DNA of 63,827 nucleotides, the filler included. It is 8 parts of 8 records of this genome, joined end to end, with 100 filler letters (N's around TTAATTAATTAA, not from the genome) between each part and the next. Parts side by side here need not be neighbours in the genome. Positions count along the whole stretch, not along the records: positions 60,784 to 63,827 come from SRR7504441_4536; 7 more parts are not named here. One strand, given 5' to 3'. Every line of letters starts with the position of its first letter. Within the stretch, counting starts at the first letter, position 1. The position numbers and the translations under genes are program-made. Positions 8,752 to 63,827 of this stretch are shown in pieces. A model generated the notes under the pieces. It searched no databases, was not told the origin of the DNA, and saw nothing but the letters and a program-made list of their open reading frames with translations.

Positions 8752-8851
8752 NNNNNNNNNNNNNNNNNNNNNNNNNNNNNNNNNNNNNNNNNNNNTTAAT
8801 TAATTAANNNNNNNNNNNNNNNNNNNNNNNNNNNNNNNNNNNNNNNNNNNN
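8752..8851. other. Artificial contig spacer (also 14539-14638, 23731-23830, 32033-32132, 36948-37047, 43126-43225, 60684-60783)
   Basis: Seven identical 100-nt N-runs, each with a central TTAATTAATTAA (stop in all six frames). Confidence 0.98.
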
Positions 8852-60783: not shown

Positions 60784-60813
60784 CACAGGCTCACTGATAC
60801 TGTATAAGCCCGA
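60784..60813 (+). repeat. 30-nt repeat copy A (contig start), candidate introner/MITE terminus
   Basis: CACAGGCTCACTGATACTGTATAAGCCCGA; exact reverse complement of 63798-63827. Confidence 0.9.
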
Positions 60814-62355
60814 TCTAACCTGATCTCCGCCGTTGCTCGGGTGCGAAACTCGCTGGCGTACGCCACGCACCGATTCTTCCAAGAGAATGGGTTTCTGTAC
60901 GTCCACACGCCGCTTATCACAGCGTCCGACTGCGAGGGCGCCGGGGAGATGTTCCAGGTCACAACTCTGCTCAACAGCGTGGACCCGGCCAAAGTGAACC
61001 CGACCCGCCGAGCGGCCTCCGAGCAGGAGGTGAAAGAGATCCAGGGCAAGATCTCTGCAAGCGTCGAGCGCGAGGCCGAGCTCAAGACCGACGAGAAGAA
61101 GAACAAAAAGGTGCGCCGCCGTCTGCGCCGCTCTGATCGTAGATCGTGTAGGCAATCGCCAAGGGGACCAAGGAGCGGGCTGACCTGGAGGTGGCTCTGA
61201 GGAAAGCTCTGGAGGCGAGAGACGAGGGTGACCTTGCCCGGGATGAGACTGGTGCCGTGGACTACACACGGGACTTCTTCCAGAAACCGTCGTACCTAAC
61301 AGTCTCTGGACAGCTCAATGTCGAGACTTACTGCTGCGGACTGTCGAGTGTGAGCGCGCCCGGCCCGGTGGCAATTGAGCTGGTGATCCGCAGGTTTACA
61401 CCTTTGGGCCTACTTTCCGAGCAGAGAACTCCAACACTACTAGGCATTTGTGCGAGTTCTGGATGATCGGTACCGATGCCACGCGGGCCTGTTGCTGACT
61501 TGGCTGCGCAGAGCCGGAGATCGCTTTCGCTGACATCAACGATGACATGCGCTGCGCGGAGGACTACGTCCGGTTCTGCTGTCAGGTGTTGGGGGCTGTA
61601 GGTGCTGGCTGAGCATGGCGCTGTGCAGTACCTGCTCGATCACCACATGGACGAGCTGGAGATCTTTGAGAAGTTTGTGCAGCCGGCCGATGGGTCCAAG
61701 AACAACTGCATCGAACGACTCACCCAAGTGTGCAACACACCGTTTGAGAGGCTCACATACACTCGAGTCATCGAGATCCTGCAGGTCAGTGCGTGAAGGC
61801 CTCTGCGCTTAGCTGGAGGTGACAGGAGACGGTAAAGGGTGGGCATAAGTTTGAGGAGAACGAAATTGTTTGGGGCATGGACCTCGGGTCGGAGCATGAG
61901 CGATACATCTCTGAGCAGGTGCGTGCAGCCAGGTTGTTACAGGCTGAGCTGGGCTGCAGGTGTTCAAAAAGCCATGCATTGTATACAACTACCCCAAGGA
62001 AATCAAGTCGTTCTACATGAAACTCAACGATGACAAGAAGACAGTTGCAGCGATGGATATCTTGGTCCCCAAAGTGGGAGAACTAATTGGCGGGTCTGAG
62101 AGGGAATATCGGTAGCTTTCTGCTCACTATTATGGCTCACTGTGCTCCAGGCTGGATGTGCTCGAGGATCGGATAACTGAGCTCGGTCTTGACCTTGAGG
62201 CGTACCGGTGGTACCTAGACCTGCGAAGATACGGCACAGTCACACACTCAGGGTTCGGCCTTGGATTCGAGAGACTGATTCTCTTTTCTACCGGAATGGA
62301 GAACATTAGAGACGTGATCCCGTTCCCCCGGTACCCGGGTCATGCAGAGTTCTAA
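60809..62355 (+). CDS. asnS: Asparaginyl-tRNA synthetase, 5' partial, 7 introns
   Basis: [92 protein letters not shown]. Introns 61111-61151, 61350-61393, 61470-61511, 61586-61628, 61785-61825, 61919-61959, 62112-62150. Confidence 0.97.
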
Positions 62356-62730
62356 ATCTCATCACCAACAACGATAGGCATCGCAAGCTGAGTGCACCGT
62401 ATCACAATTCACATACATGTAGCAGACATGACTTAAGGCATGACTTGTATACAATTCATACAAACTTGTCTTGTAGACTCGCTGCATACTCGTTGCATGT
62501 ACACGATTGTAAGAGCTTGAAATTTTAAAAACTTAATACAACTAACATTACAGGTACATGTACAATCTAATTAAATCTAATGTACAAACGCGTTGGGTGT
62601 ATGACCAAGGGACATGTTAGGGACATGTACAATCTAATCGTCGCCTCGGCTTAAAACGTATTTAAAACGTATGTTGGCGAAGCATTTAATTTTTGACCGC
62701 AAAATCAGTGAATATTTGATTGAATCTTTG

Positions 62731-63802
62731 TTATAATGCGAATTGATCTGAATTCTCTTGGGGCTTAGCAGCGGGCAACACCCGGACTTTGCAGCTTGCC
62801 ACACCGAACTCCACGATCGGCACAAGTGACATCCCACGAAGGCCTTGATATGCCACACCAAGATTGATTTGATTCTTGAAGAAAGTCAATTCGCCGTTAT
62901 CAATGTCACAAAGAACTCCGATCCGGTCACCAACATTAGCGGCTTCGGCATACTTCTCTTGGGTTGCACGGTGCCACTTGCTTCCAGTCCCGAGGTCATG
63001 TCAACTCTTGCAGTTGAATGACCTGTGTCTTGTTCTTAAACCTTAGTTGGCGCATTTCTTCTGTCTCTATTTGCTCTTTTTCTTTTCTTAATCTTGCATT
63101 AATGGCATGCTGTTCCATAACCTCCTCTTGCGTTGCCTCCAACAAGTTTTGAGACTCTCGCTGCTCCACAACAACTGCCTCCAGGATGAATGCAACCAGT
63201 TATTCTGGACGTGGTACAGCGACGAGCACGAAAGTACTGCAGCAATGCTACGGATCGATGCACTCTGGAACTACTTTGTAAGCCGTGGCTGCGTTACCGA
63301 TGCCTCGCTGGGGCTGAAAATTGGCTCAAAAACGAGCTCCAAGTCTCTCTCCGGGCTACTTACGGTGACCCACGATAGCTGTTCTTTTTTGCTAACCAAT
63401 TCGACCTACCCGGGTGCGATCTGAGTCTGCAACCAGCGCGAGAAGCTCGGCGACCAGCGCCTGGCTCACCAGCCACTGCATCTTGGACGCCTGACCCCAG
63501 TGACGGCGCCTCTAGGGTGCACACCTCATCCAAGGCGTCCAAGCCGGACAGCATGTCCTTGAGTTCATCAGTGTTCATTGCCCCGGGGTCAGGCTGCCCC
63601 AAACTGCCACCAGACCCGTCGTCCGCACCGCCACCAGACCAATCAGCTCGCCCCCCTGCACCGCGCCATGCAGGCAGACCTTTGATGAGATCGCAGATGG
63701 GGCCACTGTTTGAAGATGTGGTCTCCGACAGGTGTCGATGTGGTACAAAGATGTTAGCAATGTCACTCGAGTTCAAGCACGCATTATAGATGCAGGCTCG
63801 GG
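62731..63802 (-). CDS. Fragmentary gene(s), 5' partial; ends in the C-terminal half of a SPRY domain
   Basis: 63000->62731 reads ..GDRIGVLCDIDNGELTFFKNQINLGVAYQGL...LVPIV (SPRY). Upstream coiled-coil and low-complexity frames do not join cleanly. Confidence 0.45.
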
Positions 63803-63827
63803 CTTATACAGTATCAGTGAGCCTGTG
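63798..63827 (-). repeat. 30-nt repeat copy B (end of window)
   Basis: TCGGGCTTATACAGTATCAGTGAGCCTGTG; reverse complement of copy A. Confidence 0.9.

Follow-up and report, generated by a model that had tools for sequence, protein, structure and literature searches.

The last of the eight contigs that make up a 63,827-nucleotide (nt) stretch of DNA, hereafter the window, begins with the 30-nt sequence CACAGGCTCACTGATACTGTATAAGCCCGA and ends with its exact reverse complement. This contig (60784-63827, 3044 nt) carries the catalytic core of asnS, the gene for asparaginyl-tRNA synthetase (AsnRS). We tentatively read the terminal inverted repeat as a real two-copy, local inverted duplication of an asnS intron-exon junction, whose ends would have been cut as stubs of k-1 bases, k being the word length of the assembler. 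The pattern is most likely of an already-known kind, the k-1 contig-end stub at an inverted repeat, with k deduced from the stub itself. The original prediction had taken the same 30-mer for the end of a candidate introner, a multicopy intron-generating element interrupting two unrelated coding sequences. Nothing in the present data shows a jumping intron-making element, and the multiplicity of introners was not found in the searchable sequence.

The repeat itself is genuine and beyond chance. The two arms match with 0 mismatches, as had been claimed, and the inverted identity of the contig ends extends over exactly 30 nt before base 31 differs (T vs G). With up to 3 mismatches allowed, the 30-mer has only these two matches in the window, and two matches were obtained in 0/100 dinucleotide shuffles. 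Beyond the 30-mer the likeness of the arms falls to chance, with a local alignment score of 19 against a shuffle mean of 18.2 (standard deviation 2.3, maximum 29). The other seven contigs show a terminal inverted identity of just 0-2 nt, no further pair among the 16 contig ends has at least 8 nt in common, and the stub is shared by none of the remaining ends (0/14).

The search for additional copies did not bear out the multicopy claim. Comparison of all contigs with themselves revealed no other repeat of at least 24 nt involving the 30-mer sequence. Diverged copies, defined by at least 16 of 25 positions, amounted to 7 weak matches in the window vs 0-6 for 30 shuffled queries, which is not above chance. 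The arms lie 3 kilobases (kb) apart in inverted orientation with no further copy in the other 60.8 kb, and this fits a two-copy repeat. No exact match to the 22-nt core of the repeat was obtained in three collections, which comprise 241 million records (metagenomes), 32 million contigs (prokaryotes) and 2.9 million contigs (viruses). These scans are uninformative about how many copies exist, since the metagenome contig collection lacks the species; the best asnS exon-1 locus there reaches 83% identity over 54 amino acids (aa). In the data examined (63.8 kb) the repeat is confined to two places, and a low-copy family may still exist elsewhere in the genome. The same scans bear on a trivial explanation, that an adaptor, primer or vector sequence was left at both contig ends. 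Although the presence of the repeat at both ends in inverted orientation is what such a leftover would produce, the empty scans of the three large collections rule out a common adaptor. Moreover, the mRNA agrees with the left copy over its final 6 nt, conserved residues are encoded by the final 5, and none of the other 14 contig ends has the repeat, so that this explanation is very improbable.

In a de Bruijn-graph assembler, a contig carries k-1 bases of a node when both ends of its non-branching path are attached to that one node. The repeat has the corresponding properties: the identity is exact, the inner edge is abrupt, and the contig ends at the outer edge of the word on both sides, the repeat having been correctly described as terminating the contig in both directions. 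As the stub length is exactly 30, k would be 31. The 30 nt would therefore not be the size of anything biological, and the length is better read as the k-1 of the assembler than as that of an element, with the stem going on outward. The sole feature of the repeat that reads would truly define is its inner edge after CCCGA. Stubs of this type are familiar from unresolved repeats and from hairpin loops at inverted repeats, which likewise show fixed length, exact identity, an abrupt inner edge and the same end base on both sides. The present case differs in that the stub coincides with a junction of biological meaning, an intron 3' end plus 5 exon nt, and in that k is deduced. We suggest that an exact terminal inverted repeat of a k-1-like length be read first as an assembly-graph stub, even when it lies on a real splice site.

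The left arm lies on such a splice site. Exon 1 of the visible part of asnS matches the class II tRNA synthetases (Pfam PF00152), and the solved AsnRS 6pqh aligns from the R of this exon onwards, at its residue 136 of 490. The remainder of the preceding intron and the upstream exon lie beyond the contig edge, and the 5' part of asnS, including this exon, was not found elsewhere in the window. The reading frame after the AG is (x)CC-CGA-TCT-AAC and an in-frame TAA stands ahead of it, both as originally described. The public runs used contain at most 0.14 of the words of the last contig; X6 and X9 are DNA runs, and the RNA runs include X1 and X5. The key RNA contig comes from run X5 (151 nt, depth 2.7). 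It covers 60808-60864 with one mismatch and continues upstream as GAGCATCTGCGGACCATCGCGCACCTGCGG, which encodes EHLRTIAHLR, after which the window gives G-CC-CGA-TCT, that is, A R S. At the joint, CACCTGCGG is followed by G-CCCGATCT, which yields EHLRTIAHLR-ARSN. The joined mRNA thus encodes the conserved EHLR..AHLR[AP]RSN with no residue gained or lost relative to its relatives. The asnS mRNA is spliced at AG|CC (60808|60809) in phase 1, and the prediction of an intron with this 3' splice site is upheld. Because the RNA contig joins the exon exactly at AG|CC, the 25 nt in front of it form the true 3' end of an asnS intron.

This splice also removes the idea, offered as an alternative in the original prediction, that the whole 3-kb contig is a Pack-type element that carries terminal inverted repeats (TIRs). 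That idea fails because the asnS mRNA is spliced across the left boundary. Rather than a captured fragment, asnS is a working gene whose mRNA joins 60809 to an exon that lies off the contig, and its 417-aa reading is intact.

Splicing by hand of the seven internal GT-AG introns of asnS (61111-62150; 41, 44, 42, 43, 41, 41 and 39 nt) leaves a reading of 417 residues that is unbroken until the TAA at 62353-62355, and the joints of 6 of the 7 are present in Logan contigs of two marine metatranscriptomes. The contig therefore provides RNA-backed, very short introns (39-44 nt) in a poorly sampled marine protist. Branch-like CTRAY motifs, read by eye, lie 11-16 nt ahead of the AG in these seven introns, and the A of the branch-like CTGAT in the left arm sits 11 nt ahead of its AG, in keeping with the branch spacing claimed for this genome. 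At the left-arm site, an intron is absent in 11/11 relatives' loci inspected, a subset of the 80 metagenome loci kept; these loci are distant (at most 83% over 54 aa) and mostly intron-free or bacterial. HLRxRxN was read without a break in all 11 of them, the nearest proteins are likewise ungapped, and the AsnRS relatives at 82% identity are transcripts.

In the spliced asnS mRNA, ..CTGCGGG|CCCGAT.., the exon-exon junction forms the centre of an 8-nt palindrome, CGGGCCCG (60803-60816 region). This palindrome is a post hoc observation and a cheap one, given the GC-rich Arg and Ala codons.

We propose the following course of events. Both contig ends would enter the same sequence in opposite orientation, so that in the assembly graph the contig would form a hairpin loop whose cut lies 30 nt inside the common stem, with the 30-mers as its k-1 stubs. 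The left stem would be the upstream region of asnS, ending in 25 nt of an ordinary spliced intron end and 5 nt of the next exon. The right copy would be a second, inverted copy of the same junction whose stem likewise extends outward. It may have been produced by a local rearrangement, an inverted duplication or a template switch over ~3 kb, in an unstable, non-expressed stretch with a broken coiled-coil/SPRY gene. A copied junction is favoured over the end of an element because the common sequence continues past the splice site for another 5 nt, within conserved codons. The CCCGA had been explained as a target site or an exonised terminus; a boundary inside codons that align residue for residue with those of relatives suits a copied junction better.

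Inverted duplications are known from rearrangement breakpoints, where they arise by staggered-break inversions or by replication template switching, as in fork stalling and template switching and microhomology-mediated break-induced replication (FoSTeS/MMBIR). The right arm resembles them as a short inverted copy of a sequence ~3 kb off, with a sharp edge and with other breakpoints within 830 nt. It differs from them in the absence of microhomology at the junction, and the event here is predicted from sequence.

The right arm was said to interrupt a second gene in the sense orientation and in the same codon phase. The phase stands, as both arms run into open frames in the same phase, the left one being asnS; the second gene is unsupported. 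The right-hand open reading frame (ORF) of 147 codons has no homologue at E ≤ 0.001 among 131 candidates (proteins of 80-258 aa) and no Pfam family. Over its first 75 codons the codon-position pattern of GC seen in asnS is missing (GC at third positions 0.50-0.57 vs 0.71), and a coding-like pattern begins only at about the internal ATG at 63578. No RNA depth was found over 62620-63827 in X1 or X5, though asnS is covered there; this hole proves nothing on the splicing of the right copy. The right arm is in no supported gene, and the description of two unrelated coding sequences gives way to an unsupported ORF beside a broken coiled-coil/SPRY fusion.

The frames of the coiled-coil-like ORF and the SPRY piece are joined out of phase at 62999/63000. 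The 150 SPRY relatives have no match upstream of 63027. In the DNA run X6, two separate contigs read past 62999/63000 and keep both frames open. Translated by hand from their loose ends, the SPRY-side contig gives ..AFRRSFGWVY|DLGTGS, which is like ..PWGWVYDIGTG.. of the relative P0004, and the coiled-coil-side contig gives ..LQELT|VALQVKE. The position 62999/63000 is either a breakpoint relative to another population, that is, a deletion or rearrangement that made a pseudogene, or a mis-join. A second irregularity is found in X9, in which a DNA contig (215 nt, depth 2.6) links 63518-63397 (-) to 63184-63245 (+) with 31 other letters between. This 63184/63397 joint implies either an inversion of ~200 nt in that population or a chimera. 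Together with 63797/63798, the final 830 nt thus contain three joints that are not common to other populations, and the contig flags a locally rearranged stretch beside the essential gene asnS.

A rival explanation is an artefact, with no second copy in the genome. In that case 63797 would have been joined, in an inverted chimeric fashion, to the minus strand at 60813, the contig would be folded back on its own upstream sequence, and the cut would again lie k-1 nt into the common node. Whole-genome amplification of single cells, chimeric reads or a graph mis-join could be the source. Multiple displacement amplification typically gives chimeras in the form of inverted joins that span a few kb, for which Lasken and Stockwell 2007 is reportedly the relevant account. 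The graph shape would be identical to that of a real inverted duplication. The junction has no biological logic, since it lies 5 nt into an exon with nothing alike beyond, and the last 830 nt hold the two further joints, which break frames that are open in the other populations. The low-depth inverted joint in X9 shows that such joints occur in data of this kind. However, a chimera as the sole continuation needs the true continuation past 63797 to be missing, which is unlikely for unamplified shotgun data; the junction shows no visible microhomology (..CAGGC|TCGGG vs ..TTAGA|TCGGG), and the explanation depends on the library type. We regard a chimeric join as the next most likely explanation, somewhat behind a real inverted duplication.

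A mobile intron-generating element, either an introner or similar to a miniature inverted-repeat transposable element, would explain the repeat by sense insertion into two genes of an element whose 3' end carries a branch site and AG and whose repetition breaks the assembly. Introner elements are said to be treated in Worden 2009 and Huff 2016. Those of Micromonas pusilla and other aquatic eukaryotes share with the present case a repeat whose end falls at a 3' splice site in use, which lies sense to the gene and occurs in a marine protist. In favour of this explanation, splicing is seen at the intron end that forms the left copy, each copy runs in sense into an open frame of the same phase, and the 25 nt have 44% GC as opposed to 63% in the neighbouring introns. 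The 11 loci without an intron at the site agree with an insertion, though they are distant and mostly intron-free, and the palindrome CGGG|CCCG at the mRNA junction could be a transposon-type target. The excerpted text of PMC11282704 places introners in 5.2% of surveyed genomes and gives them as 6.5 times more frequent in aquatic organisms.

Several observations speak against such an element. Introners are families of many near-identical introns, whereas here there are two copies, 3 kb apart, with splicing seen for the left copy only, with no diverged copies above chance in the window and with none of the other 14 contig ends sharing the stub. Unless the element has target specificity, the 5 nt of conserved codons within the repeat amount to a 1-in-1024 coincidence. 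The second coding sequence is without a homologue, a Pfam family, RNA cover or a coding GC pattern in its first 75 codons. The original prediction had proposed that an unseen 5' end mirroring the repeat could supply a GC donor; three Gs precede CCCGA in the mRNA, and an exactly inverse 5' end would entail either CT as donor or AA as acceptor, rather than GC or GT. Micromonas IE1, as described in the excerpted part of PMC11282704, has TIRs and 3-nt target-site duplications that lie inside the intron, whereas the extra common bases here are exonic. It is accordingly unlikely that a mobile intron-generating element produced the repeat. The same low probability applies to its most specific form: in a marine protist lineage not sampled so far, a low-copy DNA element that generates introns would have the 30-mer at its 3' terminus and a palindromic CGGG|CCCG-type target, which would account for the first exon bases common to the copies, and it would have inserted both in the essential gene asnS, where splicing removes it, and in a lineage-specific gene nearby. 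Were the introner reading true, the few cases of visible intron gain would be joined by a new lineage and a target-specific mode.

Several points weigh against the two-copy inverted duplication that we prefer. The value k = 31 is deduced from the stub length. Neither contig end is covered by reads or depth, and the DNA runs X6 and X9 have no contig there. The stem length and the total copy number lie outside the sequence at hand. The splice evidence is a single contig of depth 2.7 from one run. The GC of the 25 visible intron nt, which is 44% vs 63% in the seven internal introns, hints at a differing origin of the left-arm intron. Finally, an open frame of 147 codons follows the right arm in the same phase, a coincidence of ~1 in 3 were the junction to lie within a real exon and, as estimated from composition, of ~1 in 20 were its first 75 codons not coding. 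A small share of the probability, close to that of the mobile element, is left to explanations that were not considered.

Features of the last contig and spacers of the window.
Feature	Position	Strand	Remarks
Left arm of the 30-nt repeat, CACAGGCTCACTGATACTGTATAAGCCCGA	60784-60813	+	Contig start
End of asnS intron, last 25 nt	60784-60808	+	Branch-like CTGAT; AG 60807-60808; RNA contig X5
In-frame TAA	60805-60807	+	Directly ahead of the splice site
Start of next asnS exon, 5 nt CC-CGA	60809-60813	+	A/R of HLRARSN; inside the 30-mer
AsnRS catalytic core	60809-62355	+	8 exons, 7 introns of 39-44 nt; intact 417-aa reading
SPRY domain, C-terminal part only	62731-63000	-	Profile positions 44-115 of 121
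Coiled-coil-like ORF	62996-63199	-	Ends at TGA on meeting the SPRY piece, out of frame
Stretch with opposite-strand joint in X9	63184-63396		Inverted there relative to the last contig
147-codon ORF in phase with the right arm	63360-63803	-	Without evidence that the first 75 codons code
Right arm, exact reverse complement of the left arm	63798-63827	-	Contig end
Spacers	8752-8851 and six more		Stops in all frames; features crossing them are not real

The eight contigs of the window are linked by spacers of the form N44-TTAATTAATTAA-N44. They measure 3.0-17.5 kb with a GC content of 0.53-0.63. The contigs other than the last hold intron-free ORFs, the longest of 1110 codons, and one ORF of 1069 aa leads to the SBNO-type helicase family (Protein Atlas) without pointing to a taxon. 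A search of the last contig against Rfam returned nothing except one chance 5.8S match (E 0.55).

Five environmental or transcriptome proteins share 80.6-82.3% identity with the asnS reading. Among them is a transcript labelled Telonema subtile (EukProt EP00656; 81.3% over 417 aa), which is the closest AsnRS with a name, and chlorophyte proteins reach ~60%. The protein collection, whose best AsnRS stands at 82%, lacks the species itself. Judged from this one gene at 81%, the assembly may come from a telonemid-like marine protist. A literature search on telonemid nuclear introns yielded nothing pertinent. As the excerpted text of PMC3491373 has it, the 'big outlier chromosome' of Mamiellales has a lower-GC region with many introns of 40-65 bp in housekeeping genes. 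An origin from such a chromosome was considered and rejected: the introns here have 63% GC and are not AT-rich, the identity is 81% to Telonema vs ~60% to chlorophytes, and AT-rich dips occur in other contigs too.

Run X6 also gave joints at 60962/61511 and 61437/61511 within asnS, and many loose ends lie at ~60901-60975. These were set aside as the conserved AsnRS of other organisms (likeness 90-95%, 24-nt sides). The 3' end of asnS intron 4, GCATGGCGCTGTGCAG (61613-61628), shows an inverted match of 15/16 to the minus strand within the right-hand ORF, GCATGGCGCGGTGCAG (63656-63671); the match is borderline, as a rough estimate gives 0.1-0.3 expected by chance. Downstream of asnS, TGTAA is present at 62508-62512, and an RNA contig from a polyA library over the asnS 3' untranslated region stops at 62520. 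From its sequence and position, TGTAA may be a UGUAA-type polyadenylation signal.

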